This document shows positions 10,830-62,400 of a stretch of DNA of 64,000 nt, piece after piece. How positions within the stretch are numbered: position 1 is the first letter of the stretch; every line of letters begins with the position of its first letter. A program made the position numbers and the translations under genes. The stretch is from assembly GCA_977018835.1 (NCBI GenBank), contig OZ361261.1, forward strand, positions 1,984,001 through 2,048,000. The letters are read 5' to 3'. Source of the stretch: Minutocellus sp. GHC0000111. Lineage: Eukaryota. The notes under the pieces are model-generated. The model did no database searches. It saw nothing but the letters and a program-made list of their open reading frames with translations, and was not told where the DNA came from.

Positions 10830-11803
10830 CTATTTTTCTGTCCAACCTCAGAGGATAAGCACATCCATTCTGGGGCTGAGGTCTCGACATGCTTTTTCAT
10901 TTCACGGTGCATGTGCCGGTCGACAGAGGCCCCACTATTTGCGGGAACTGTCGATGCATGGGGTGCCTTGGCCCGCCGTGCCTCTCCCCTCTCAGTCGAC
11001 CTCCCTTCTGCAATGGCTGTGAATTTCGCCATGGTCCAACACACACCCAGTGCTCCCTCTCATCACTGACTGCCAACGACGACGACACCGTCATCACAGA
11101 GCCGTTTGCTGCTGATGACATAGAAGTAGCCGTCAACGAATTGTCTCCCCGTTCGACTCAGAGTATCAGCCGCGCTACCACGTCTCCGATGATAAATGCT
11201 CTTACTAATGCTACAGTGGCTGCAGCAGTAGCATCCGTCGAAGAAGACACACAGAAGTGCCCGCACCAAGAAGAACTGCCAGGAGCCAATCAGCCAGACT
11301 TAATCTGGCAGCTACCTTCGAAGGCTTCGTACCGGTGAACAATCCCAACGCTTGGAGAGACCGTGACCTCGAGTAGATCTACACATGTGCTGACCCTTGC
11401 CTTACCCTTACCCAATCAATTTCATCCCACAATGATGTGTGTGTTTCATTTCACAATTGCGAACCGACTTTGTTTTTTTATGTTGTCAACATTCGTTCTT
11501 ACTGATGCAAACGTGGCTACCTATCCAATTGGATTTGGTTCTAACTTTTCATTATGATAGATAGATTTAAGCTATTTAGCGGGACGACACCACCACACCA
11601 CATGTACCGGCACGACGGAACGAGGACGGTCGCCAATATTTCGGATCGTCGTCATCTGATATCATTTCGAATCCGAGACAGTCGTTTGCTCGCACTTACT
11701 TTTTTCGCTGTTTTTGGCAAAGCACCTTGCCTTGCCATGGCAGCAGTTCATTTCACTGTGCCGCCGTGCCGTCATTGCACAGTTAGTTGGTGTTTGTTGA
11801 AGC

Positions 11804-22865: not shown

Positions 22866-25800
22866 TTAGCTGTCCAGCAATTCAACCGGAGTTTTTCCGC
22901 TCTTGTCCTTATCCTGGATCGGAACACCATGCTTCATCAACAACTTCACAATTTCTTGGTTCCTGCTCTCAAACGCCCACCACATCGGGCCCCGACCATC
23001 GGAGCTTCGAAGGTACGCCATGATTGGCTCCCGTTCGAGCCAGGCTGTCAACTCGGCGATGTTATTTTGCGACACCAACTGCCACATGGCAGTGCTCTCG
23101 TCAGAGTCTTCGAGCTTATTGTAAACGGCGTCGATCTCTGTCTGCGTTGGCTTGGGCGCACTGGCCCCCGACGCTGAAGATGCCGCTGCAGCAGCTCCCT
23201 CCTTGGCAGCCTGCTCGGCGGCTCTCTTGGCCTTTTGAGGATTGTTGAGGTTCTCAAAGTACTTCTTCGTGTACTCCTCATCTTTCTCATTCTTGTTGAA
23301 GTCTTCGAGCTGGGCGAAATCCTTCTTTCGGCTCAGAACCTCCTTAAGCGCCGGAGGGTACTGGCCGGGGCAGAACCAGGAGCCCGGTACATCGCATCTT
23401 CGATTCTTCTGGTCGGCGACCCAACGCTTCGATTCCTCTGAAACGCCCTTGAGCTTGTAGATGCGAACCTTGCCATATTTGGACCGATAGACCTCCTCGA
23501 ATTTGTCCTCGGGGGCAGTCACTCCAGGTCGAATTTTGTGAGAATGAAGTTTGTATAAGAAGGACTGGGCCATCATAGGAGAGGGCATGCCCTGGCGGGA
23601 CATGCCAAAGGCACGACAGGTGGGGTCGTCAGGGCAGTGCTCCCGGTACACACTATTGGCAATACGGGCAAGATGCGGACTCTTGGCCAAATCATCACCG
23701 CCGCCTCCGCCCCAAACCAGAACGTAGTCCGCCAAGTGCCGGGCAATCTCGTAACTCTCCTCCATATCTCCAGTCAAAATCTTCCCCAAAAGGGCAATAT
23801 GCTCGTGATTCCAAGTGTTGCCGTCGGCAATAGTCGTGCGGTTGGAAATGCCGGTGATCTGATATCCATAATCCCACCAAGCCATGACGCGTGCGTCGGC
23901 AGGGGTATTGTCGCGCAACCACCAGTATGCCTCGCGGTAATCATCAACATACACGACCTCACCACTCTTCAGCTGACCCTTGAGAATGATTGTGGGGTTC
24001 GAAAGCGAAGCCGAAATGGCCCACGAGTAATCCTTGAACTGAGTGCAAGCCAAGAACAGCACGATGAAGAGAGTGGCAGCCACCATCTTCTTTACGGTCT
24101 TGCCATCCTTGGAGTTGGAAAACTCATTCATTCCGTCCGAAAGGGCGTCAAAACCGGCAAAGCTGCTGTCTTTCTTCTCGATCTTGGCCTTCTTGCCTCT
24201 CTTGGAGGGGGTAGTGCCTCCGCTCTGACCCTTTCCGCTAGTTGAGGCATCACCTTCTTCGTCATCCCAAATCTGCTGGACTCCCCAGGCAACAATCCGC
24301 CCTGCGACAATGCCACCCAATGCGGCAGCAATTGGCCCCGTCAAGAGAATCAATCGGACCATCTTGTGGCTGAAGAAGTAGGCCGCAGTGGCATACACCA
24401 CCAAGAATGATGGGCCGTCGCCGAAATTCAAAGTCACCAGCAAGAGACCGATGGGAGCCAACGTACAAAGGTGGTGCAAGTACTGAAAGTACGCCTTGTT
24501 GTTGGCCGGTTGATGCTCAGCGACGGAATCCACCAAGGGATTGCCCGTCTTGGTATGCTTGACGAACAGTCCGCGGACACGAGAGGAAATGGGGCCAAAG
24601 TATCCCTTGGGTGTGAGAAGGATGAGCAAGATGATGCCAACGACCGCGCACACGGAAATGACCTTGAAGCGGAGCTTCCATGCATCGGCCCGTCCCAGCT
24701 TCTTCTTGAGGCGGACAACCTCGCAGTAGTACAGGACTTGGTATCCGACAAAGACCAGGGCAGGACCGAGCTGTTCCAATGATTTGAGCGGGGTCCATCC
24801 GACGACGGGCACTTGGATGGCCAGGGCCGTGCCGACCGCGTAAAACAGACTGTACGACAGATACACCTTGCGAGAGAATCGTCCCATGAGGACCAGGACG
24901 GCGGCGTGGCAGCCCACCAGGTTCAAAACAAAGACATATCCACCCCAGGCAGCGACCATGTAAAAGTAGGCCAGGCCAGCCAGGGCACCGAAGAAATGGC
25001 TGTAGTTGTCGTCACCGGCACGGAGACTGCGGACCCAAAGCAGAAAGGTGAGGCTCATGGCACTGATGGCGACGGATTCGTTGTCGAAGCCACCACCGAC
25101 GGATCGCATGAGATGGGCAGGAACGACCGCCATGAAGCCCATGGCAAACACGGCACATTCCAGGGCGGGGGTGGACAGACCAAAGAGGACACGGCGGGAC
25201 GCCTGACCGGCGGGGTCGATGGTCGACGTGTCGGTCCGACGGCCCTTGAGCGCATCCACGAGGACACCGACGAGGGTGGTGCCGGTATTCTCGGGGAGGG
25301 AGCATTCGTAGGCCAGACAGCCGATGAGGAAGGTGGCGAGAGCGCCGAACCAGGCGGGCATGTAGCAGCAGACGTCGTTCAGGGACATGCGATCGCCGGT
25401 GAGGTAGTTCTTGATGTAGACAGCCGTGAATTGCATTCCGGGGTAGATGGTGGTTCCGACGGGCCGCCCGAGCGGATACCATGACTGATAATCGAACCAT
25501 TGGAAGAATTTCTTGGCGCCGTTCAGGTAGAGATACTGCGCAAAGGAGTGAGTGGGTGGAGAGCAGAAAGAGAAGGAAATATATGTGGTGAGACGCATTG
25601 GCTGGCTCCGTCCGATAAATTTGCTTTCTGGTGTGCCGGAAATGAATTATTGCTATTATTATTACAAAGATACGCAAAGAGACTACCCAACCCAGCATAT
25701 TCTGTATACTAGAGCAAGGCAATCGCTCCATGTTATCTGCGTTGGTATCAGCCTCTTTGTGCAACCAAATGCAAACATCAAGCACAAAGAATGCCTAAAA

Positions 25801-26515: not shown

Positions 26516-28361
26516 ATGGCAGAAAGCAAGGAGTACCTCAAGCAGTCGTCCCAGCTGGGCAACCTCGGCCGTCCTCAGGTGGCCATCCTCGACTTTGGCA
26601 GTCAGTACTCGCACCTCATCGCTCGCCGGGTCCGCGAGCTCCACGTTTACTGCGAGCTGTACTCCTGCCTCGTTTCCGCCGAGGAGCTCGGCGCCCACGA
26701 CCTCACGGCCATCATCCTCAGCGGTGGACCCTCGTCGGTCTACGAGGAGGGCGCCCCCCACGTGTCGCAGGAGATCTGGGACCTCATCGCCGCCCGCAAC
26801 ATCCCCGTTCTGGGCATCTGCTACGGCATGCAGGAGCTGGCCCACACCTACGGCGGCAAGGTCGCTCCCGGCCAGAAGCGCGAGTTCGGCAAGGCCATGG
26901 TCAGCCGCGTCGAGGGCTGCGACTGCGGCCTGTTCGCTGGCATGCCCGCCGAGTTCCAGGTTTGGATGTCCCACGCCGACAAGCTCCATGAGCTTCCCGA
27001 GGGATTCAAGTATGTTGGTGAGTCTTTGTTTGTTTTCTGTGTTTTTTGGTATTCTGTAGCAGTATATACATGACGTGCAGTATATACATGACGTAGAGGA
27101 TGCTCGCGGATTGGAGAAGACCGGGTTTCCCTGCCTGTATCTACACCCATGACATGTGGTTTGGCATTTCGTTCTTATTTCTTGTGCAAATTCTCATCAT
27201 CTTTCGCCCTGAAATGAAATCAATCGACGCCCTTGCGCAGCCGGTACCGAGAATGCCGAATTCGTTGCCATGGAAAATCTTGAGAAGAAGATGTGGGGCC
27301 TGCAGTTCCATCCCGAGGTGACGCACTCCCCCCTTGGTAAGGACATCCTCAAGAACTTCGTCGTCAACATTTCCGGTGCCAAGCAGGATTGGGTCATGAC
27401 CGACTACGCCGAGGAGTTCATCCAGCAGGTGAGGGAGAAGGTCGGTCCCAACGGCAATGTTATCGGTGCCGTCAGCGGTGGAGTTGACTCCACCGTTGCC
27501 GCCGTCCTCATGAACAAGGCCATCGGTGATCGTTTCCATGCCGTCCTGGTCGACAATGGATGCCTTCGCAAGGATGAGGCCGTCAATGTCCTCAAGCGTC
27601 TCCGTGGTGACTGCGGCATCAACCTCAAGTGCATTGATGCCAAGGATCGATTCCTCAACCTACTCAAGGACGTCGAAGACCCTGAGAAGAAGCGCAAAAT
27701 CATCGGTACCACCTTCATCGAGGTCTTCCAGGAGGAGGCCGCACGTATCGTCGAGGAGACCGGACCCTGCGACTTTCTCCTCCAGGGCACGCTGTATCCC
27801 GATGTGATTGAGTCCATCTCGTACAAGGGACCCAGTGCTACCATCAAGACGCACCACAATGTCGGCGGTCTACCTGCTACCATGAAGCTGAAGCTTATTG
27901 AGCCTCTCCGTGAGCTGTTCAAGGATGAGGTCCGTGAGCTTGGAATTGCCCTCGGTATCGACGAAGTGAGTGTTTGGCGCCATCCCTTCCCCGGACCCGG
28001 CCTTGCCATCCGCATCCTGGGTAGTGTCACGGCCGAGCGTGTCAAGACCCTTCAGGAGGCCGATGCCATCATGATCGAGGAGCTGTACAAGTCTGGGCAG
28101 TACCGTGCCATCGGTCAGGCCTTCGTTGTTCTCCTCCCCGGTGTGAAGAGTGTTGGCGTGATGGGTGATGGCCGAACTTATGAGAACGTTTGCTGCATCC
28201 GCTGCGTGGAGACGACGCATTACATGACGGCCGACTTCTACCACCTTCCATACGAGGTCATGGGCAATATGTCGAGTAGAATTATCAATGAGGTTCGGGG
28301 CATCAATCGGGTCTGCTATGACATCAGCTCCAAGCCTCCCGCCACCATTGAGTGGGAGTAA
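26516..28361 (+). CDS. guaA: GMP synthase (glutamine-hydrolysing)
   Basis: join(26516..27017,27241..28361); [48 protein letters not shown]. Confidence 0.97.
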
Positions 28362-28674: not shown

Positions 28675-30760
28675 CCTCCGAACCCCTCCAAAGCATCTCA
28701 TCCTCGTCCCCGTATCCGTATCCGATATCCCTACTAATGCACTTGCAATAATGCGCCTCCTTCGACCCTAACTCTACATCTATTCATGATTTCGAGCACG
28801 CTCGATGAGATCTCACTAGTTGAAATTTTCCGACACCTGAAGCTAGTAAATGGCATAGATCTACAGAGTGATTTCACGAGAGAGCAGACACCCCCTCCGC
28901 GATGTTTCGTAAACATTGTACCAACTTCCTTTTATTGATGATCCTTACTCAGAAGGGTATTGTAGACCATAATCAACAATAAAAGGAAGTTGGTACAATG
29001 ATCTTGGTGCTCTTTTAGCACATGATATAGATACGGTATTAGAGTGTTTCTTTTGGTACACTATTGTTTGAAAATTTATTTTTATGTCGTAGAATACACT
29101 TGTGCTGTTTCAAGAAAGAAAAAGAAAAAATACATCAAACTTTATAACGAAACAAAACCCATTTCGTTCAACGAATGGGGCCACAACATGTGTCGCCGAC
29201 GTGCCTCCCATTGAGAACAATCAAGACTACGGGGCACCATACCCTTGTAATAGCCTTTCACAACACTGTGGTGCAGCAGGAGACTTGCAATTACTTTTTT
29301 GAGCCTTGAAAAATTCGTTCGAGTTAGACCCGATTTTTTCGACAGTTTCCGACGGGTGCGTCGGTGCGTGCCTGTACCGCGAAATGTGGCCCAGCGCCAT
29401 TACACCACCCATCCGAAAGTTGGTCCGGATGCTTTTATGCGGTCCATGCACCACTTCCGTTGCACTGAGCCGTCGACGCTTCACCCATATATATACCAAG
29501 CGCATTTGAGTGGGGGGTGGTGGCATTTCTTGACAATTCATAGAGAAAACTATTCCCAAAGTCCCGTGTCTGATGTCGGCACCAGATTTCACCTTCATTG
29601 CTTCTGCCGCCCGAGAGGAACGAAACCGGAGAAAGCGGCCAAACCAACACGTGAGATCGATGGATGTAATATAGAATGAGCATCGTGCGTGCTGATATTG
29701 CGTGAAGGAACAGTGGTTGAGGCTTGAAGGGGGTTGTAGTTGGGGATTTGCTACTTTCAGATGTTTTTGCTTTCCATGGTGACGGCCACAATGATACAAA
29801 GATGGGGCCCAATATCGACCCTCTGGCGCAAACTTGCTCCCAATATTACCCAAGTGAAAGTAATGCCGGTCAGGGAGGATTGAAATGGATGTAGACAAGC
29901 ATCAGCCATCATTCTTTGCCATTTTGAGGGTAAAAAAATATTGAAAATTTCTGGGCATGAGGAGATGTTGCTAAAATAGCACATGATGTACGAATGAGTT
30001 TGCTTTCAAGTATGCAATACTCACCTAACGCATGTAGTTGGCGTATACATCGGTTGGCTTGGAGTTATTTATCGTTATACCATCATTTGGTGGCCTTCTT
30101 GTGGATATGAATTCTCCTTGCTTTCGCCGTGTTGAGAGAGGCCATTTAGTGGGTTCATTTTTGCGCTGCATAAAGTATCGCAGAAAAAAATTCCTAGTGC
30201 CTTACTATTTACGGCGATTTTGTCGGCGGTCTCGTGGAATCACTCTATACACCTAAACGACCTCCGAACCCCCTCCAAAGCATCTCATCCTCGTCCCCGT
30301 ATCCGTATCCGATATCCCTACTAATGCACTTGCAATAATGCGCCTCCTTCGACCCTAACTCTACATCTATTCATGATTTCGAGCACGCTCGATGAGATCT
30401 CAGTTGAAATTTTCCGACACTTGAAGCTAGTAAATGGCATAGATCTACACCTAAACGACCTCCGAACCCCCTCCAAAGCATCTCATCCTCGTCCCCGTAT
30501 CCGTATCCGATATCCCTACTAATGCACTTGCAATAATGCGCCTCCTTCAACCCTAACTCTACATCTATTTCAATTTTCAACTCAATTTTTTGATGTTTAC
30601 AGCACTGTTTCAGTAAGTATGTAAATTGTCATAGATCTACACCTAAACGACCTCCGAACCCCCTCCAAAGCATCCCATCCTTGTCCGCACATCCGCATCA
30701 AATTTCCTGGCCAATGCACTCGTGATATCCCGTCTGCATCAGCCCTAACCCTGCATCTTC
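28675..30760. repeat. ~195-bp repeat family: one detached copy plus three tandem copies
   Basis: cctccgaaccc(c)ctccaaagcatctcatcctcgtccccgtatccgtatcc... at 28675; tandem units start at 30248, 30446 and 30638 (last one diverged). Confidence 0.9.
28914..29000. repeat. Inverted repeat, 29-bp arms (28/29 match), 29-nt loop
   Basis: cattgtaccaacttccttttattgatgat (28914-28942) vs atcaacaataaaaggaagttggtacaatg (28972-29000). Confidence 0.9.
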
Positions 30761-31193
30761 ACCTGTTCGTGGCCGAAAAAGTCTCTCGCCTCAAAACCAC
30801 TCTAAACCTAGCTACATGCGTAAAAGTCAACTCCTGCACCTGAACTTCACAAAGTCAATTCTTGCACCTTTAATTTTACGTAAAGTGCTGCCATTAACCA
30901 TGTGTACAAGATCGACTGGATTCCTATTGCGATCGTGTAAATGTCTACGCTACGTAGAGAGGAAAAATTGTCATCATAGAGGAAAAATTGTCATCATGCG
31001 CCAGATGCGTGCTGCAGAATAGCACTACGTACGTACATGTAGTAGGTCTGCTTGCATGATGTCATCTCGAAGCTAATGGCTCCTCAAAACATCACTTTCT
31101 GTCGATTGGCGCCCCCAACGCGCCATCGCAACACAACCACAGAGAAGATACGCCAGGTGCACGGACGGTACCGTTTCCTTTTATTACGCAGCC

Positions 31194-34100
31194 ATGGGTA
31201 ATTGTCTTTCATCTGGTGGTTCGGGTGCCGCGTCGGTGAGTTTTGTTGGATTTCAATGTAGTTTTCATCCCTTACCCGTTGTTCTGCCTGCTCCCACAAC
31301 AATTGAGCATCAGCTGACTGTTCGAACGATTTATTATGTATGTGTGTGATGACCAATCGTCATGCGCGGGTGCAGATCTGATTGATCTGTATGCAATGTG
31401 GGACTTCTCGTTCGTTGAGCCACGCTGGCACCACCCTCAGGTACTTTGTTTTCATTATACATCCTTTCATACTTTCGCCCCGTCGCCAACTGACAACATT
31501 GCATCATTCCAAACTTTCGCACTTATTATGCCGGTTCTCCACCTCCGTCGGACGCTTATTGTTCCTCACCCTCCCCGCCCCTGCGCATGGACAACAGAAG
31601 TCGGCCGCGACTCCACAGGCCGGTTCCGCTGGTGGTTCCAGTAAGGGAAAGAAGTTTGCCGACTGCTACAAGACTGGCAAGACTGTAAGTATTATTGTTG
31701 CCTTCTCGCCGGTCACAAGTCAAGTCATTCCAGCACTAATGTCGGCATTGGATCAATCATACATGTACCAACACAACAATTGGCCTCACACTGTCGTCGC
31801 CACTCATCTATTCTTTCCCCACACACTCACAGCTTGGCGAGGGTGCGTTTGCCGTTGTGAAGCAGGGCACCAAGAAGGGCACTTCCGAGTCATATGCCAT
31901 CAAGATTGTGACCAAGGCCAAGCTGACCGAGGAGGATGATTAGGCGCTGCAGGATGAGATTAGCATCCTCATGGAAATGCGTCATCCGCACATCATTCGG
32001 CTGTACGAAACGTTTGAGGATCCTAAGTTTTATTATCTGGTGACCGAGGCGATGTACGGCGGAGAGCTGTTCGATCGCGTCGTGGCCAAGTCGTACTACA
32101 ACGAGAAGGAGGCTCGCGATGTGACCAAGATTCTGCTCGAGGCGCTCAAGTATTGCCATTCGCAGCAGGTTGCGCACCGTGATCTCAAGCCCGAGAATTT
32201 GCTTTTGCAATCTCCCGATGATGATTCGCAGCTCAAGATTGCCGACTTTGGATTCGCCAAGAGATGTACCGGCGGTGACGAGTGCTTGACCACTCAGTGC
32301 GGTACTCCTGGGTATGTTGCTCCCGAGATTTTGGAGGGAGTGCCGTACGGTACCCAGAGTGATATGTGGTCGATCGGTGTTATTGTCTACATTCTGCTTG
32401 GCGGATATCCTCCGTTCATCGAGCAAGATCAGAAGCGTCTCTTCTACCGTATCCGCAAGGGACAGTACGAGGTGAGTTTGCTTGTGACTGTATATAGGAA
32501 TTCATGCTTTGATATGTGTTTTGTGCCACAAACATATTTCGACTAATGATTGTGATACATGATGAAATTTCACAGTTCCACGAGGAGTACTGGGACAGCG
32601 TCTCCAAAGATGCCAAGGATTTGATCTCGTCGATGCTCACGGTCGATCCAAGGAAGCGCATTACTGCCAAGCAGGCTCTTAGCAACTCGTGGATTACCGG
32701 ATCGGATGCCAAGCTTGCGGCGATGGATTTGGGCAAGAATCTAGAGGAGTTCAAGAAATTCAACGCCAAGCGCAAGTTCAAGGCTGCCGTCAAGGGTGTG
32801 ACGGCAGCCAATATGATGAAGAAGTTCATCGGCGGTGCCAAGGGTACCAGCCTTGAGCGGAAATTGACCGAGGATGATGTCGCCGATCTCAAGGAGACAT
32901 TTGACATGTTTGACAAAGATGGAGGCGGATCGATATCTCAATCAGAGCTCAAGTCTGTGTTCGACCGTTTGGGCATGAAGGTATCAGATGACGAAGTGAT
33001 GGAAGTTATCAAGTCTGTTGATGAGAACTTCGACGGCGAAGTGGATTTCAACGAGGGTGAGAAATAATTGTTTCGAGAATTTTGTTGTGAATTCCTTCCT
33101 GTGTGTTATGCCTCGCTTTGACTCATCATTGCTCTATTTCGTATTTCGTATATCTCTGCAATTGCAGTGAGTCTTTTAATTTGGGGTTTGGCTATGGCTA
33201 TGGCTTAGAGGTATTGTTTTGCAACGAGTTGTGTTTATTCCGGCCATTCGATTTTGTGCTACTGGCGGTTGATACCGTCCGACAAGTCCCGATAGCAGCA
33301 ATCTTTTGGCAATGTGATTGGACTTGGTATGTGAGTACCCCTGTACAGTATGATTACATGATCGCACAGAATGCATTCTATTGTTTGGTTACAACTGATC
33401 TTCTCGTTGCCACTACCTCACCTCCGATCCCTCCGCGTACCACTGTTCTCAGTCGGTCTTGGCCTTTGGCTTCTTGTCCAAGTCACCTCCGTCACCAGCG
33501 GCACCACACTCACCAGCGGCGGAGGCAGCAGCATTCTTTTTCTTGAGGCGATGGCCTTGCAGATACTTGAGCTTTCTGATGTGAGCGTCGAAAGCTGGCT
33601 GCACCCAGCAATAGGCAAATTCTGGCTTTCTGAGCCACGGATGGTCCTTGATCAGCCGCTTCTTGGTGTATGGGCTCGTGTCACTACGGAGGGCGACCTT
33701 GCGGTCGCGGACCAGATCGAGGGCGCCTTCATACTCGACCAACGCGCAGGAGAATATTCCACCACGACCACGGCTGGTATGCTCGCCCGCACCGATTCTC
33801 TGCCAGAGGCGACGTTTGTCGAACCGGTACTCGTATTGGGCGAGCTCCTCGGCATCGAACGCCAGCTGCTCGCGACCTACCCCCGTGTGCAGCATACGAA
33901 TGGAAATGATACCACCACTACCGAAATCGTCCACAGAAAGAGGCGTTCCATCGATTTTGAGGACGAGCGGCCCGCGATGGGCTCGGAGCATGTGAGCAAT
34001 GTGCTCATTGCCTCTTTGGCCTAGGCCCGGACCCATGTACCCACCCTTCGAGGCCATGACCAACGAGGTGGGCTGAGCTCTCTCCATAAAGGCCTTGGTC

Positions 34101-35360
34101 TCTGCGGCGATCTGCGTAAGCTCGTGAGACGTCGCCTTTGGCTGGACCAAGACTCTGGTAGCAGCGACCTCCTCCCGCCGACGTCGATGGTGTGCGGCTG
34201 TTGCGATGGTGACTCCAGCCCTCACCTTCTGCCAGAAAGCCTTCCTGCTCTCCCAGTTCTCTTTCGCGACGTGGCCGTGGGCGAGGCAGCCGAAGGGGAT
34301 GGACTGGCGTTGACCGTTGAGGTAATCAACTTCGACCACCTCGTTCTGCTCGGGATCAAAGATGGCGAGGATCTTTCCCGAAGCATCAAACTCTTCCCCA
34401 TACATCTCAATGGCGCAATCAGTGCAGGTGATACCACCGACACTAGAATGAGAGCGATTGTAGCAGCCGAGATTGGCGCACTCTTTCTTGCCATCCTCTC
34501 TTGGCGGAGCATCGGCGGGACGGTTGCGCTTCGATGCCGGGGCATCGGGCTTGTTCGCCTTGCGAGCCTTGGAAGCCTTTTGGGAATCGCGTTTGCCCTG
34601 CTTGTTCTTCTCCCACTGGGCCTTGACCTTCTCGACGTCCTCATCGGCCACGTTCTTGGAGACCATGGACCACGTCAGGATCGGATGTAGACCATTTGGG
34701 GAGTACTCGAGGGTCTTAATCTTGCCGCCATCCAAGCGGTCGCGATACTCGGTGAATTTGCCTTTCGAATTCTTGGTATCCTCGACGCCATACTCGTCGA
34801 GAGAGCATTGGGTGCAAAGCAGGCCAGCGGTGTTCTTGTGAGCCCTGTTCGTACAGCCGGTCTCGGCGTTGTCGCTGCACAAGACCTTGCTTCCAGCCAT
34901 TGTTCTTCAGCGATGATGGTACTCGAAGCGGTGGCGGTGGAGCTTGAGACTGTGATAGTGCTCTGGCCTTGACCGTTGCTTTTTCAAATCAGATCTGTTT
35001 CAAATTTTTGAAAAAAAAAATGAACATGTGCTGCATTTTTCGGAATATGTGCTGCAGTTTTCGTTATATCCTTTCAAATAGTATCTCCTTGTTCTCACCC
35101 CCTTTCTTCTTGCTATGTCCCTACAGTTCCTGGCAATGATGAAGAAGATGCCCGATTCGGAGAATGAATTGAAAGAGGCATTCAAGGCCTTCGATGCCGA
35201 TGGTGACGGCACGACGTCGAAGGATGAGCTGAAGAAGATCTTGGCTAAATTCGGCCAAACTCTCACAGATGCCGAGCTCGATGCGGTTATGGCCGAGGTC
35301 GATACCGATGGAGATGGAGAGATTGACTACGAGGAATTCAAACGTGCGATGGAAGCTTAA
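31194..35360 (+). CDS. Calcium-dependent protein kinase (CAMK kinase domain + 4 EF-hands), predicted N-acylated
   Basis: join(31194..31235,31598..31684,31833..32471,32576..33055,35127..35360); MGNC start, LGEGAF, AIK, HRDLKPEN, DFG, APE; four EF loops; in-frame TAG at 31941-31943. Confidence 0.9.
33056..35126 (+). other. Candidate [D1,2] spliceosomal twin intron: internal intron 33057-33167 lies within the donor of the external intron
   Basis: GAG|G[GTGAGA...TTGCAG]TGAGTC...CTCAC...CTACAG|TTC; two-step excision restores DFNE-FLAMM in frame. Confidence 0.7.
33449..34900 (-). CDS. Nested intronless gene of unknown function with two Cys4/His repeats
   Basis: Uninterrupted 483-aa ORF lying entirely inside the CDPK intron; repeats C..GCTNRAH..CTQC..YG and C..GCYNRSH..CTDC..YG. 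Confidence 0.8.
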   Translation of the reverse strand: MAGSKVLCSDNAETGCTNRAHKNTAGLLCTQCSLDEYGVEDTKNSKGKFTEYRDRLDGGKIKTLEYSPNGLHPILTWSMVSKNVADEDVEKVKAQWEKNKQGKRDSQKASKARKANKPDAPASKRNRPADAPPREDGKKECANLGCYNRSHSSVGGITCTDCAIEMYGEEFDASGKILAIFDPEQNEVVEVDYLNGQRQSIPFGCLAHGHVAKENWESRKAFWQKVRAGVTIATAAHHRRRREEVAATRVLVQPKATSHELTQIAAETKAFMERAQPTSLVMASKGGYMGPGLGQRGNEHIAHMLRAHRGPLVLKIDGTPLSVDDFGSGGIISIRMLHTGVGREQLAFDAEELAQYEYRFDKRRLWQRIGAGEHTSRGRGGIFSCALVEYEGALDLVRDRKVALRSDTSPYTKKRLIKDHPWLRKPEFAYCWVQPAFDAHIRKLKYLQGHRLKKKNAAASAAGECGAAGDGGDLDKKPKAKTD

Positions 35361-35740
35361 ACAATTTTTTTGATGCCGGTAAAGGGATGTGTTCATTTGA
35401 GATTTCATAGTGCTACACGCCCGTGGCGAGTCGTTTGGCCTGTATACTATTGCTCAAGAATAGTATTCCTGATAGACTCATTAATGTCAGTGAAAGGATT
35501 ATTTGTTAGGATTAGTTTGCGTATAGGTATCCGGCCGTGCTGGCTGAATCATTGCTGCCTGGCCTGCTGACTTCGATTTTCCCCGCTTTTTTCTCAAAAA
35601 GGGAATGCCCCCGTCTGGTCCATTCCATTTGCTCGTCGCCGCCGACCTGTTGACTGCCTGGGTCTCTGGGTCTTTCTGCATGCCCTCTGCCCGGATGCCT
35701 TGCCTGGATCAATCAAGCAGAGCACTCATTCGTACCCAGT

Positions 35741-51586: not shown

Positions 51587-52239
51587 TATTTGGAGTGATC
51601 GGAAAGACCGTCGCCAAGATCAAAAGTAGGCCAGTCACTTTTGTTTCTTCTGCGTGCGAAGCGACGATGTGCGAAATGAAATGAACGAACGAAGATACCG
51701 CTGGTTGCAGATATCAAACTGCTTGCCTATCACCGGTAGGTTTGGAAAGCATACTCCTGGCGAACTCTACTCTCTTTGGTTTGGTTGGAGGTAGCGTACG
51801 CACCGAGTCGAGTCTTTGAGTTGGTCATTCTCCAATCTGCTGATGACGGGACCAGATGGATTTTCTACGGGATCAGCCAGCTGATGACCCCAAAATCGGA
51901 CGGCGAAGATGCATGACCAGATCCCAAACAGCCCATTTATTTGTGCCGCCGCTAGCTGGCTGCTTCATATCATCTGCCCTGCCCTTGCAGCCAAATGAAT
52001 GCCTCATCAAAAGACCTTGGTGAGGTCATAAGTGAGGGTTGGCTGATCAGGAATCCTGATCTTTGGCTGGACTCTGGCGCATCTTTTATCAGCATAAAAC
52101 GAGCACATCTCGTGCCTGGTTGTTTCTTTTCGTCGTTCGCGTCCGCTGGAGACATCCATCGCTCTGCGACATACACATATTCATTTGATATTGGAGTGAC
52201 TGCAGCAGCCAATTGCAGGATCCCATAGCACGGCCCAAT

Positions 52240-55200
52240 ATGAATGCTTCTGCTGCTACTACCAGCTCGTCCGATGACGAGCTCATCGCCGCCATGACCG
52301 ATGCACTTACCGTCGATTCGGCCAGCGCTGACAATGGCGGCCATAATGGCAAGAACGACAGGAGCAGCGAGAAAGCAAACAATACATGTAATGGGAACGC
52401 CTCGCCATCCGCGTCATCCGAGCATCGACGGGCGTCGGAGACCAGTCTGCTAACTTCGGCTACCTCGAATTGGTTTACGAATGCGGGAAGTTCCATCTTG
52501 GCCAGCGCGGTGGATTCGGTTGTGTTGGGCGGCGGTTCCGGCGGTTCAAACGGCAACAAGAAAAAGGCATTAGTTGTCGGCGGGGGGCAGGGCCTGTTCC
52601 CACCTGCTGCTGTACAATTGCAATCTCAAAGTCAATCTCGGGAGATGCAGACGACTGCCGATGCCAGTGATGTGCCGACGGCCAAGCAGATACTGGAGCA
52701 GGCGAATGCATGCGAAGATGGGAATGACGATGAAGCTGACACTGCTGAGAATCCTCCTGAGGATGATGGACCAAATGTTGCCGACGATTCGTTTGCCACT
52801 GCCCACACCTCAACATCACAGTCATCTCCGCGCCGAAGACGTGGCAGGAGCCAAAGTCGCAAGTCTGACGTAGAACGCAAAGTCAAGGGTATGCCGCGAC
52901 GTCGATCGTCACCGGTCGAAACCTTTTGCGCCAACGATCTGCCGACGGCGATGGAGGCCGAGGTGGCGGCACAGGCAAGGAAGGAGGATAGTGGCAAGAA
53001 GGCTCCCATCGAAGAGATTGATCCCGCCAGGATCAAGATTGGCAAGCATGCGGACGTAAAGAAGGCACCGTCGGCAGCACCAAGCGTCGTGAGTACCAAC
53101 TGCGCCGACAGCGGAAGTACCGAAGCTAGTCCCACCGATACCTTCCAAGGAAATCTCAAAGATTCCAATGGTGGTGACTGCAGAAGAAAATCGCAGAGGA
53201 AAAAATCCCTCACCGACTCAGCCTCAACCGTGGCTGTGTCCAACGTTCATGAGCTGGCAGATTTTTTGGCCGATGCCGAGGAGGCATACGATGCCGAGCA
53301 GGAGCGCAAGAGCATAATGGCGGCCGCGATTACGCCTACTGACCAAGCTAAAACTATTGGTGACGAAGATGATGAGCAATCATTGGACCTTGCCGAGATC
53401 ACAGCTGGTAAAACCAACAGTCCCGAATCAGCCCGAAGCACTCCGAAGAGACGGGGCTCAAAGTCGGATTTGTCCCAAACGCCGCAACGATCCTATCCCA
53501 GCGTTACTCGGCATCAGTACAACTCACGGAAGCACCAAGATTCCTCCGGCAGTTTGGGCGCAACCAATAATGACTCCCAACAGACATTTTCATCTCTCAA
53601 GAAGGGGCACTCATCCTCCTCCTCCTCCAACAAGTCATCTTCTCTTCTGAAACGCCAGACGTCGGTGCAATCCAATCATTCGTCAAGTCGAAGCGTCCAA
53701 TTCAAGGATGATGTAGCTGGCGCATCACCAAAGTGCAAGAACAAATCCAAATCCAAGAAGCCAGCGCCGCCGTCTCGCCCGTCGTCCTTCGAGGCAACGG
53801 CCGAAATGTACAGGGAGAAATACGCCCGATGCAAAAATAAATCGCTATGGGCAAACCTGGACCGGTCGATCGATACCAACGTGACTGCTTCTGCACCATC
53901 AACGGCGGGGGGTAAAGAGCGGTCTATTGACCAGCAAGAGAAGGCGAACCAACTACTCCGCCGGCGAGTCCGAATGTGTTTCGCAGCCATGACGGTGGTC
54001 TTCGGGGGTGGCATTGAGGATGATCCTGCCGAATCGGAGGCCAATCCCAGTGTTGATTTGAACGAGTCATTGACGTCCCTTGCCGGGGAAGATGCCAGCG
54101 TTCGTTCTGGTATGAGCGGGATTACTCAACTCACGTCCCGGTCAACAGCATCCAAAATGAACCGTAGAGGTAGGCACATGCGCCACCCATCTGGATCTTC
54201 TCAGTCCACTATTGAGAGCAAGAAGGCCGGTAGCAATATTCCCTCGAAAAGACGTCCGTCGATACCTGTAGGCGTAGTTCGATTGCTATTTTCCATACTC
54301 ATTCGGCGTCGCGGTGGTCTCGATCTTGATGATGACTTTACCCAAGCAGTTGAGGCCGACAATGCGTCCGCCATTGACTCGGAGAAGAGGGCTGAGCTAG
54401 CGGAAGCTCGAATCGATGCCATTGTTGAGGATGTGATCGAGGCCATGACGTCTACACTGGGTTTGGTGGATTCGATATCTAGCTACGATGCTGATGATCA
54501 GACCGCAAGCGGCGGAAGCTCCGAGGGCTCTGGCAGACGGAGGAAAAGGCGCGGTTCATTGGCTACCGATTGTGCTGCTATTGCTTCCAGAGCCTCGAGT
54601 TTGGCCAGCGAGGATTCGGCCTCTCTCTTCATCAATCACAATGTGCACATGCTGTATGGTCAGGCGACTGCGTCCTATCGGCCTGAAATCTTTTTCGCTG
54701 ATACCGCGGCGTTTCATCGGTTCCTCTACAAGAATCACACAACAGGGAACAACGAGTGGGATCCGGAAATTGAGTTAAACTATGAAATGGCCGACGCGTG
54801 CCTTGGTTGTGTCCGCCGGAAACATACGGCCGACCCCATTGGTGGACCACCGAATGATTTGGAGTATGTCTATTCATTGGAGGCGGTTCCTCTCCATCTC
54901 CTGCGCTGTGGGCGATACCACGAACTGGAAATTTTGCTTTCCAAAGAGTCATACGTTCGTCGTAAGTTGAGGAAGCTCGGGTCCATCGAAGGGGTCAAAG
55001 CTCACATCGCTGATGTTTCAGATATGAACGAGGTGATGGCAAATGTTGGGAACAACAACATCGACATGAGCGCAATCTTTGTTGCGGCAATGTATGAAGT
55101 GATTAAAACAGCTACCGACCAAGCCAAAATGAAAGCTTCAAAGTCCAAGTCTCCAAAATACGAAGATCGTAGCCATTCCCTGAAAATCCAGTCGGCGGAA

Positions 55201-58200
55201 GCTTTTCATGCCATGGGAGTTTCTCTGCAGGAGCACGGGTTTGAAGATGACGCAGTCGATGCGTATTCCCATGCGATGGACAAATTCGATAATGTTGAGA
55301 TCATGGTAATGAAGCGTGGAATTGGCAGTTACGGATGTTTGCTCCGTCGATCAAGCTCAGACGAGAGTCTCTATCTTCCGTCAATTGACCACGTGCAGTT
55401 TGTGAGTCTCTATTCAACTTTGGTTCATTTTGCACCGCATCTATTAAACCTCACACATTCATTGTCGTCGCTCTTTTTTCGCTCGGACTGAAATAATCAG
55501 ATCATGGCGGAAACTCTTGTTGGGATGGCTCGAGTCTACGACGAAGCTGGAAACCTTGATGCTGCCATGGAGAGTCTCGAAAAGGCCTTGTCATTGTACA
55601 GCAAGCAGCGCTCATTGCTGCATCGGAGCGGCGTGGCATCGACACTGACAACCATGGGAGTGCTGAATTTTCGCAAGAAGGATTGGAATGTGGCCATGGC
55701 CTGCTTCGACGAGGCTCTCGTCATATTACAATCACTGGAAGTCGATGGGAATAGAGGCGAGGAGATCGGCGACATTAATCAGTGGCAAGGAAACATCAAG
55801 AGAGAAACCGGGGACTACCAAAGCGCCCTTGCACTCTTTACGGAAGCATTTTACACCACCACGCTCAAGTACGGCAAGATGCACCCTCGTGTTGGACGGA
55901 TCCATCAGAGTATGGCCATTATCCATGACGATCTTGGCGATTTTAGGGAATCGATGGAACATTATCAAACGGCACTCAAGATCCGAAAGCGTGCGGTCTC
56001 TAAAGCGACTAAGTCGGACGATATCAAGGCCTTTGAAGTCGCTACATTTGAAGAGCTTGCAGTTGCCGAAACCCTTATGTGTATGGGAAATGTTTATCGC
56101 GTAATGGATGAATTTTCCAAGGCATATGATTGTTACCTCGAGAATTCACTGATTATGCGATTGGATGTGACGGCACTTCTGGGTAGCGCATTTTTATCGA
56201 CAAATGGGATTCTTGGACTACTTATTAGTGATGAAGGAAGTGTGGTTTCTGTCAACATTCTTTATAACAGACATATGATGACGCTCGACATGGCAAGGCG
56301 TGTCGAACTCCAAGGAAAGGAGAGTCTCATCTCAGGCAACGAAAGTGATGCTTCGTGGAACGACAACGAGCAAAATTTCCACCGCTCGGAGCAGGTTGCC
56401 GATTGCCTTTACGATGTCGGTGTCATATCTGCCTCCCGTTATTTGAAGCAGCTCGACAACGACATAAGTATTCGCACTGACCAGATCGTCCAGAGACGAG
56501 AAGAGGCCCTATCGTGTTTCGAGGAGGTTATTACCATTCGACAGGAGGTGAGCACGTTGCTCTGTACTGTTTGCACCATATTGGTTTCCATCTTTCTGGA
56601 TATTTATCATATTTATCTCACTAACTCCTCCTTTCTGCACCTACTTCGCATGCATCAATTCCAGCGCGTCAACGCACTCGATAAATTGGTTCGATATGAT
56701 GGTGCAAGCGATCGAGGACAGGTTGATGAGAAGATAATCATCGCCTATTCCCTTTACGAGGTCGCCCACCTGCTCAGTTGCACATTCTTTTCTCTTCAGC
56801 AGCGCGATCCATCTGAACCAATTGATAATGATTTGGTCTCGCGTGATATTTCCGCCGCCCTGAGCGCATTCGCTGATTCCAAGAGGATGTTCGAAGAGAT
56901 GAACCTTCCGAATGTTGGTGAAGATGACGCTCAGGAGCATGTGAGCGACCCTTCGCTTGCCAGAGCAAAGCGCGTTCCCGAGATTATTGAGGAAATGACA
57001 CAGACAATGGCCGTTCTGTATCGCGAAACAGGTCAGTTGTCGAAGGCTTTGGAAATGTATACCGAGCAACTGAATCTGCATGCGAATGGCTCTGCAGATA
57101 GTAGTGACGCACGAGACGACGCGTCCTATTTTAGTATTGAAAGTAGCAAAGTCTCTCGCGAGGAAAAGGTTGCCCAAGCAATCGAAGACATTGGTGACTT
57201 ACTGCGAGACCAAGGAGATACGCAACGAGCACTTGAACATTACTCGGAGGCACTCGAGATACGCTCATCTTGTGACGAGGCTGGGCTTTCTGTTGCAAAG
57301 ACACTTCGTTTGATAGGCCGGCTTCATCTCCAGAGAAAAGAGTTCGATCTTGCCGTCGTTCGGTTTGAAGAGGAACTAAAGATTCTCATTGATCTGCTGG
57401 ATGAAAATTCGTCGTCCATAGCCTACTGTTTTCATAGCATTGGCAAGGCGTACGAAGGCAAGGATGATTTCGGCAAGGCACTGGACTATTTCCAGCGTGC
57501 TCGGAGAACAATTGGAGACTCTGCGTCAGCCCAATCAGACATTCAATACACGCATGTAATGTTTGATACCGGGAATGTGCTTCTTCAAATGGCCAAGGCG
57601 ACGAATCTCGAAAATAACGAGCATGAATTGGCACTGAAATGCCTGCGAGGCGCGTTCGAGGGATATAAGGCGTTTTATGGCGAGACTTGTGTCGAGGCTG
57701 CAAACTCTCTCTTCCTCCAGGGCGAACTCTTTTATTCCAACGAAGAGTATGAAACCGGGATCAGTTGTTTCGAAGAGGCTCTTCGAATCTATCGCATTTC
57801 TCTGGGCGAAGAAAACATTAAGGTTGCGAGAACCCTCAATCTGATTGGTTTGTGTCATCTCGAGAGCGGATCTGATGAAGATTATGCAATGGAATGCTTT
57901 GATGCCTGGTAAGTTTTGCTGTCGCTACAACAAAAGATATGCATTCCGCCTTGAAGATTTTCTCGTGCTCACTCGCCCTTCTTCTTTGATTCACTTTGTC
58001 CTCCTTTTTAATTTCAGCCTTGCAATACTTCAAAGCAATGGCCACGAAGGGAGCGAGGACCATGCCTGCGTACTTTTCTACAAGCCGGCTACTCATGAAA
58101 AGAACGAACAGCTTGATTTGGCCATCGTGTGCTACGAGGGTAGTGTTGGTTATTACCGCAAGCTGCTTGGTTCGGACGCAATGAAAATTGCTGTGGTTCT

Positions 58201-61092: not shown

Positions 61093-61337
61093 CTTTCAAC
61101 TATACACACAAGGTATTGATCAAAGTAGTGCCGCTTCTTGCAGGGAGAACATGCATGACGAGAGAGAAGCATGAGAGGATGAGTGATGTTCCACTGACGC
61201 CATCAGGTAATGAGCCCTAAGAAACATCGTAAAAAACTCAAAAACCACGTTTGATGATCCTCCCGCCGAAAAACTGGCACAGACTTCCTTCTCTCCTCAT
61301 CTTGAATTCACCACAGTTTGGAAAGGAGGTGAGCGCA

Positions 61338-62400
61338 ATGGCGACCTCCTCCCTCCGCCGTGCGTGCCTAACGACGCTCATGTGCCCCAGCAGTGCCAAT
61401 TTGATGGGAAATGTGCAGTGAGATGGATCAGATTGTTTTGATGGTGGTTGTGTTGTAAATGTGAGCAAATTCTTGACGCTACAATTCTCAAATGTTTTCT
61501 CATCCTTACTCTAGCGGCGGAACTATACTACGACTTTGCGAGGAGGCTGGTAGAATAGCCGGCACGAAATGGTCTCTTGGACCAGTTGCACTGGTTGGTG
61601 CGTCCAAGACACAATTCCGCCAGCCGATACACGTCGGTGAGGTGGCCACCGTCGACGCATCGGTCGATTATGTCAGTCGACATGCAATTCGCGTTGGCAT
61701 GACGGTCCAGGCAGAAAACATGGAGACCGGTCACAAACGCTTGACGAATACTGCCAGCATGTGGTACTCGACGGTAGACATCGATTCTGATAGTTACACC
61801 ATGACTGTCAGTTCGCGGGACTTGCATCCTCTCCATCCGGCACAAGTTGCGCCCGACGCGGCGGAAGAGCATGCCTACTTTGCCTCGGCCAGGGCCAAGA
61901 TACCACTGGATGCACGTGAATTAGAAGAATTTCCGGTAGTTTTGGCCGATCTGCCCGGGCCAGATGCCATTGCCAACCATGTATTCTTGTCGGCGGGATA
62001 CATACTGAAGCTGATGGACAGCGGAGCTGCGTTGGCGGCGGTGTCTTTTGCTCGGAATGAATGCGTAACCGTTCTGCTGGATAAGGTCTGCTTTCATACG
62101 CCGATCACTGTTGGGGATTTGTGCACTGTACGAGCGGGAGTTACCTACACTTCCGAGAGGAGCCTAGAAGTGGTGGCTCAAGTATGGAAATCTTCCTCCG
62201 GCATTGTCGGTGGGCTGTGCATGGGGGATGATGTCGCACCAATATGTGCCGTCGAGGCTAGATTCGTCTTTGTTGCTCTGGGAGCGGATGGAAAAGTATC
62301 AGAGGTACCAGAAGTACCAAAGGAAATGAGAACGAAACGTTGGGAGGTTGGAGCAGCAAAGCACGCCGAGCGTCGATTCGAGAAGCAGAGAGAGAACTGA
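61338..62400 (+). CDS. Acyl-CoA thioesterase, double hotdog fold (ACOT7/YciA-like)
   Basis: join(61338..61417,61515..62400); ANLMGNVHGGTIL formed across the intron; second repeat AGYILKLMD..FHTPITVGD. Confidence 0.85.

Follow-up and report, generated by a model that had tools for sequence, protein, structure and literature searches.

Spliceosomal twin introns (stwintrons) of the [D1,2] kind are, in the available portions of the reports that describe them, a feature of Pezizomycotina, exemplified by the 99-nucleotide (nt) lipS stwintron of Aspergillus nidulans (PMC5639578) and by the set from Hypoxylon sp. CO27-5, for which a size range of 114-313 nt is quoted (PMC9024468). In these fungal structures an inner U2 intron lies between G1 and U2 of the donor of an outer intron, the gap starts with GG, the intermediate is detectable, and the arrangement is kept within a clade and absent in other orthologues. 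They serve as models of intron gain, loss and one-base shift and as evidence that splice sites pair across the intron, as far as the accessible text goes (PMC5639578, PMC5587772). No stwintron outside fungi was found in the literature searched, with limited reach into subscription journals, and in the accessible part of PMC12403724 the words 'diatom', 'algae' and 'non-fungal' have 0 occurrences. Here we describe a 2071-nt gap in a gene of the calcium-dependent protein kinase (CDPK) type from the diatom Minutocellus sp. GHC0000111, which is in our assessment very probably a [D1,2] stwintron, likely removed in two ordered steps. The gene lies in a window of 64,000 nt (GenBank assembly GCA_977018835.1, contig OZ361261.1, positions 1,984,001 to 2,048,000 of the forward strand), to which all coordinates refer. 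Among the best 120 matches to the GMP synthase of this window, those relatives that could be assigned to a species are diatoms too, at 82-86% identity. The kind of element is a known one; new here are the kingdom, the size and the cargo, and RNA supports it.

The gap separates exon 4, ending at 33055, from exon 5, starting at 35127, and it begins with GG as the fungal ones do. Its first base, G33056 (+), is kept in the intermediate and gone from the final junction. It is followed by the inner intron at 33057..33167 (+), 111 nt long and delimited by GTGAGA and TTGCAG; it contains a T-rich tract and, at 33119-33126, the branch-like TGACTCAT. Directly behind it stands TGAGT (33168-33172), which together with G33056 forms the donor GTGAGT once the inner intron is gone, so that nucleotides 1 and 2 of the outer donor are parted by the inner GT-AG intron. 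The rebuilt donor shares a 10-nt identity with the donor site of the GMP synthase gene at 27018, and it is the same as that of lipS, given as G|UGAGU in the available text of PMC5639578. The rest of the outer intron, 33168..35126 (+; 1960 nt counting G33056), carries at its 3' end a branch-like TCTCAC (35093-35098), a pyrimidine tract and CTACAG ending at 35126. The signals of both inner and outer intron resemble those of the ordinary introns of the gene. This layout had been proposed in an initial annotation of the window, and its coordinates were all confirmed from the sequence, including those of the inner intron, of the rebuilt donor with its match at 27018 and of the second excision, to CTACAG, that restores the frame.

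Cutting the gap in one step from 33057 to 35126 retains G33056 and shifts the frame, while a donor at 33167, if used first, leads to a stop. The two GT-AG units share a single G (33167), which recalls the alternatively spliced [D1,2]/[A2,3] stwintron of Trichoderma reesei DHA1, where, according to the accessible text, the GT-AG units also overlap by one G (PMC5587772). Unlike in DHA1, the downstream exon of the diatom gene starts with T (35127) and not with G, which closes the [A2,3] route and leaves only one workable order. In the first step the 111-nt inner intron would be excised from GTGAGA at 33057 to TTGCAG at 33167 and G33056 joined to TGAGT, a product that is present in RNA. In the second, the rebuilt donor GAG|GTGAGT would pair with the acceptor at 35126 and 1960 nt would be released, joining EF-hand 2 in frame to EF-hands 3-4; the resulting product was also observed. 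The final joint may be written in three equivalent registers (AG..AC, GG..CA and GG..AG) and is canonical in none of them, and because no canonical one-step register exists, the order of the two cuts would be obligatory.

Twenty-four matching sequencing runs were available, 8 of them recorded as RNA, and 8 were examined: X1, possibly the source of the assembly, X5, probably a DNA run, and six RNA runs that belong to two studies. RNA runs X9 and X19 lie outside these six, and the small-share runs X13-X20 were also left out. All run data are assembled contigs, which show the presence of a form but not its absence or level and from which rare variants are dropped; the contig pieces counted are those listed. 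The intermediate, with only 33057-33167 removed, was found in two of the six RNA runs, X7 and X12, one per study, as a joint 33055>33167 with a skip of 111 nt and short sides of 235 nt and 127 nt, respectively. The final in-frame junction 33055|35127, with a skip of 2071 nt, occurred in one run (X8), in a contig of 572 nt at a depth of 9.25, with 255 nt on the short side and 0 other letters. Unspliced RNA running through GGG was present in X10 and X11 (0 other letters, 0 gaps). The X7, X8 and X12 contigs likewise match the sequence to the left and right of their joints (0 other letters, 0 gaps); X1 matches as well. Neither one-step mis-splicing nor direct use of the 33167 donor was seen in the listed contig pieces of the six RNA runs (0/6 each). 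The message in X8 is mature, without the whole gap including G33056 and in frame, the same as in the mature relative P0126, whereas the half-spliced RNA meets a stop at 33206..33208 (+), 13 codons past EF-hand 2. Both joints had been predicted in the initial annotation, as had the translation of the intermediate with its stop, and its [D1,2] reading is borne out by the two junctions in RNA contigs, the final one appearing only in non-canonical registers that include GG..AG. What the contigs display are three RNA forms and a rebuilt donor; from these we infer, with high confidence, that excision starts with the inner intron, continues from the rebuilt donor and can take no other order.

The annotation had named two weak spots of its proposal: a lack of joints that use the 33167 acceptor, which X7 and X12 in fact display, and a homopolymer error, GG read as GGG. 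Such an artefact, or else an extra G in a decaying pseudogene, would leave an ordinary 2-kb intron, and it could draw on the nonsense codon present in the gene and on homopolymer indels of X5 elsewhere in the intron. It is already refuted by RNA contigs from both studies that contain GGG at 33055-33057, the unspliced ones of X10 and X11 with 0 gaps; moreover, the final junction drops exactly that G, and relatives with an intact kinase frame have GE(K/R) at the same place. We therefore give this explanation practically no weight.

A different account takes the two joints as independent events, the 111-nt intron yielding a short isoform with two EF-hands and the full message arising in one step through a GG donor at 33056. 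Both products exist and no data link them, exon 5 is well covered in only one of the six RNA runs (the thin cover in the other five carries no weight), and X6 splicing at 33331-33452, discussed below, could belong to the tail of the short isoform. However, scored on the donor consensus, the direct GG cut agrees at 3 of 9 positions and the rebuilt donor at 7 of 9. Nor does the account explain why TRAG stands behind the inner acceptor, as it does in the window and, on back-translation, in 4/4 relatives, and GG-AG introns are scarcely found in the accessible parts of the literature searched. Independent events are thus improbable in our estimate, and a stwintron remains the preferred explanation of the two joints.

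Conservation of the stwintron layout was followed in relatives collected by an exon-4 search and a cluster look-up, with 84-87% identity over exon 4. In nine of them the sequence runs on into an intron-like read-through tail, and these we take for gene calls on genomic DNA. Eight of these tails open with GE(K/R), fitting G-GTGAG, and that of P0125 opens with ASC. The tails longer than 90 nt all (4/4) fit GCAATNNCAG|TRA, with putative inner introns of 93, 97, 103 and 116 nt, which cover all three frames; among 2000 shuffles per tail the same fit was reached in 4, 4, 15 and 2, respectively. In a tree of 31 rows, built without P0130, P0132, P0133, P0014, P0020 and other cluster members, the window groups with the tail-bearing proteins in a single clade (100/99), where it is the first to split off, and the transcript-derived P0126 carries the mature junction. 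Six orthologous loci were available as DNA: five genomic ones (L001/L002 and L004-L006, from two apparent organisms) are intron-free at the site, while the match of L003 is intron-free throughout and so uninformative. A metagenome scan over 49 of 64 parts gave, among the matches listed, only more distant orthologues. The layout is thus likely common to this group of closely related diatoms and lacking in orthologues farther away; clade-wide tails together with intron-free distant loci would place its origin before the split of the clade and argue against its being general in diatoms. On such a likely distribution, the stwintron probably arose in diatoms independently of fungi.

Around the same site, five more distant orthologues (P0017, P0139, P0141, P0146 and P0147) stop right after the same Glu of EF-hand 2, as would be expected of an intron placed one base earlier; P0138 of the same cluster is intron-free there, and P0009 has an apparent intron two codons earlier. 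The position of this Glu is a possible intron-shift hotspot, judging from these protein sequences. In P0125, ASC could reflect a plain GC-AG donor at the same position.

Several points weigh against the stwintron with ordered splicing. Read counts, strands and lariats are beyond what contigs give, the final joint rests on one of six RNA runs with two of the 8 RNA runs outside the set, and the passage of the final RNA through the intermediate is a deduced step. The outer intron far exceeds what intron definition would lead one to expect, and an acceptor at 33452 is nearer. As for conservation, it was deduced from protein sequence and not from DNA, the four long tails are related and represent about two lineages, and the GCAATNNCAG|TRA motif was picked after two tails had been viewed beside the window; a motif fixed beforehand, YAG|TRAG at 70-140 nt, is present in three tails and was also reached in 300, 115 and 271 of 2000 shuffles, respectively. 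Finally, P0125 lies inside the clade, yet it has 'ASC' and not 'GE' after the Glu.

A scan of the window with the loose pattern G-GTRAG...YAG-TRAG returned 4 matches, compared with a mean of 1.25 over 100 simulations; the motif by itself is within reach of chance, and the case rests on RNA joints and conservation. The match at 61329-61418 (+) was rejected as another stwintron, because it consists of a 5' leader and an apparently ordinary intron of a thioesterase gene. Two minus-strand matches ending at 11205 (11411-11205) have no evident coding boundary there and are probably due to chance. Rfam gave no match across 31100-35500.

Apart from its diatom host, the element departs from the [D1,2] stwintrons of Pezizomycotina in size, 2071 nt versus 114-313 nt in what is available of the CO27-5 survey, and in an outer intron that holds an antisense protein-coding open reading frame (ORF) and probably a further intron. 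It also lacks inner-outer similarity and a terminal stem above background: the inner intron resembles the outer ends no more than shuffled sequence does, and a 14-nt end-to-end complement is present, with a duplex that ranks 60 among 92 windows. The propagating 'sister' stwintrons of Hypoxylaceae are marked by inverted repeats at their ends, by internal symmetry and by many copies that resemble one another. Origin by duplication or through a terminal hairpin is unsupported at this locus. The probable further intron inside the outer one, splitting no signal, has a parallel in the Lipomyces stwintrons sensu lato, or nested introns, as described in the accessible part of PMC7138796; the main diatom unit splits a donor, which sensu lato or nested introns, recursive splicing and intrasplicing, as treated in the available text of PMC5587772, do not.

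The antisense ORF (33449..34900, -), to which the initial annotation made no reference, is intronless and encodes 483 amino acids. Only 3 homologues were found, at 55-74% identity, two of them from MMETSP transcripts. The protein has two Cys-rich motifs by eye and one weak PHROG match (E 0.002), and searches gave no Pfam family, phage record, viral contig or convincing PDB match; its predicted fold is poor, with a predicted local distance difference test score (pLDDT) of 39. Its region is covered by RNA contigs, which carry no strand, and no transposon ends were seen. A 21-nt tandem duplication occupies 35022-35063, between the start of the antisense gene and the outer acceptor. Run X5 was considered as a distinct strain or haplotype and this was rejected, as 4 of its 5 indels fall in homopolymer runs; the nested ORF is accordingly not taken as broken there.

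The additional intron, also new with respect to the annotation, is a probable one at 33331..33452 (+), of 122 nt, delimited by GTGAGT and TCTCAG; besides these motifs, one X6 contig suggests it (depth 3.35, short side of 30 nt). The acceptor of this intron, at 33452, shares bases with the stop codon of the antisense gene and is the nearest rival of the acceptor at 35126. Removal of 33331-33452 would probably strip away this rival on the way to the last cut, to judge by that contig; it may be a third cut of this kind, or else belong to the tail of a short isoform.

It is possible, though we consider it rather doubtful, that the stwintron is real and the half-spliced RNA a stable end product, the second cut being a regulated switch between two and four EF-hands, or that the half-spliced RNA is bound for decay. 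The antisense gene could then influence the second cut. Such a reading would supplement the two-step scheme and not compete with it. Forms that keep the outer intron occur in four of the six RNA runs (X7, X10, X11 and X12) and the final form in one, and the 2-kb outer intron overlaps the antisense ORF. Against this, contigs cannot give levels, and total-RNA libraries hold pre-mRNA and DNA (one X11 piece is also unspliced over intron 3). The tails beyond the rebuilt donor are dissimilar by eye among relatives, and a TAG at codon 80 leaves this strain without any protein outcome. The easy visibility of intermediates could, as a speculation, stem from decay of the TAG-bearing mature message.

This in-frame TAG (31941..31943, +), codon 80 of 493 and not mentioned in the initial annotation, was read with 0 other letters in the listed contigs of all 8 runs. 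In the nine closest relatives covering the site the codon is Lys in eight and Thr in one, which makes a one-base nonsense change likely, and the 94% identity of exon 3 to P0126 suggests that the change is probably recent. The stop precedes the catalytic core, and presumably no active kinase is made here unless it is read through; a full kinase is thus probably not produced in this strain, which may be the only one that the runs sample. The TAG-bearing gene is still transcribed and spliced, as either a recent null allele or one with unrecognised read-through would be. TAG as a recoded sense codon was rejected, since by eye no other in-frame TAG lies within a recognisable gene of the window and none occurs in the long Pfam-confirmed frames of 712-926 codons; TAG closes 1/14 gene frames. 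Neither RNA editing nor a second allele left a trace at this position, other letters being absent from the listed contigs of the kinase gene, from which rare variants would be dropped. The suggestion of the annotation that ordered splicing controls whether the kinase gains its C-lobe EF-hands is not shown. With the frame already broken in 8/8 runs, it would hold at most for relatives whose codon 80 is a sense codon, or under read-through.

The kinase gene as a whole has 5 exons and 493 codons on the + strand. Exon 1 (31194..31235), which provides the ATG, is joined to exon 2 (31598..31684) by a GT..AG joint, 31234>31597, in X6 and X7, and RNA joints lie at either side of exon 2. Exon 3 (31833..32471), also delimited by RNA joints, encodes the bulk of the kinase domain (Pkinase, E 1.9e-68 with the stop entered as X). 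Exon 4 (32576..33055) covers the end of this domain, the junction region and EF-hands 1-2, supported by Pfam and RNA, and exon 5 (35127..35360) encodes EF-hands 3-4 and the stop codon, as indicated by Pfam, by 87% identity to P0126 and by the X8 contig. Introns 1-3 are ordinary GT-AG introns according to their RNA joints. Four of the 6 RNA-supported donors at the kinase locus are GTGAGT, and the statement of the annotation that this is the commonest donor of the window holds for this locus, to which the comparison was limited. The architecture resembles that of a CDPK, with a kinase domain and four EF-hands found by Pfam and a frame that is open in P0126 but interrupted here by the TAG at codon 80. 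Diatom CDPKs such as PtCDPK2 of Phaeodactylum likewise have a kinase domain followed by EF-hands, at which level alone they are compared here from the available text (PMC13187674); the allele described here differs from PtCDPK2 by the stop at codon 80.

On the 5' side of the kinase gene a repeat of about 195 nt is present in three copies starting at 30246, 30444 and 30636 (region about 30246-30760), and a 20-nt tandem pair lies at 30958-30997. Elsewhere in the window, the frame of the oligosaccharyltransferase STT3 (22866-25646, -) has a weak C-terminal match to ankyrin repeats, under the curated cut-off. At 52189-57912 (+) two long ORFs (1100 and 806 codons) share a frame and are set apart by a single TGA, within intron-like sequence; tetratricopeptide repeats abound in the second, and the first is without a Pfam match.

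Taken to its furthest, the material would allow a three-layer intron that is independent of fungi: an inner intron that splits the donor, a second inner one whose excision takes out a decoy acceptor, and an outer intron of 2 kb with an antisense gene, in which a slow last cut would act as a regulated checkpoint between two and four EF-hands, introns that look like GG..AG forming a hidden class across diatom genomes. We offer this extended picture tentatively and regard it as rather unlikely in its entirety. The two-step stwintron itself, as an RNA-supported and clade-conserved diatom case, means that the arrangement is no fungal peculiarity, and it provides an independent test of how such introns originate. 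Its rebuilt donor would reach an acceptor 2 kb off across an antisense gene, well past the fungal size range. Gene finders and aligners would label genes of this kind as frameshifted or as having GG..AG introns, and more of them are probably hidden in algal genomes.

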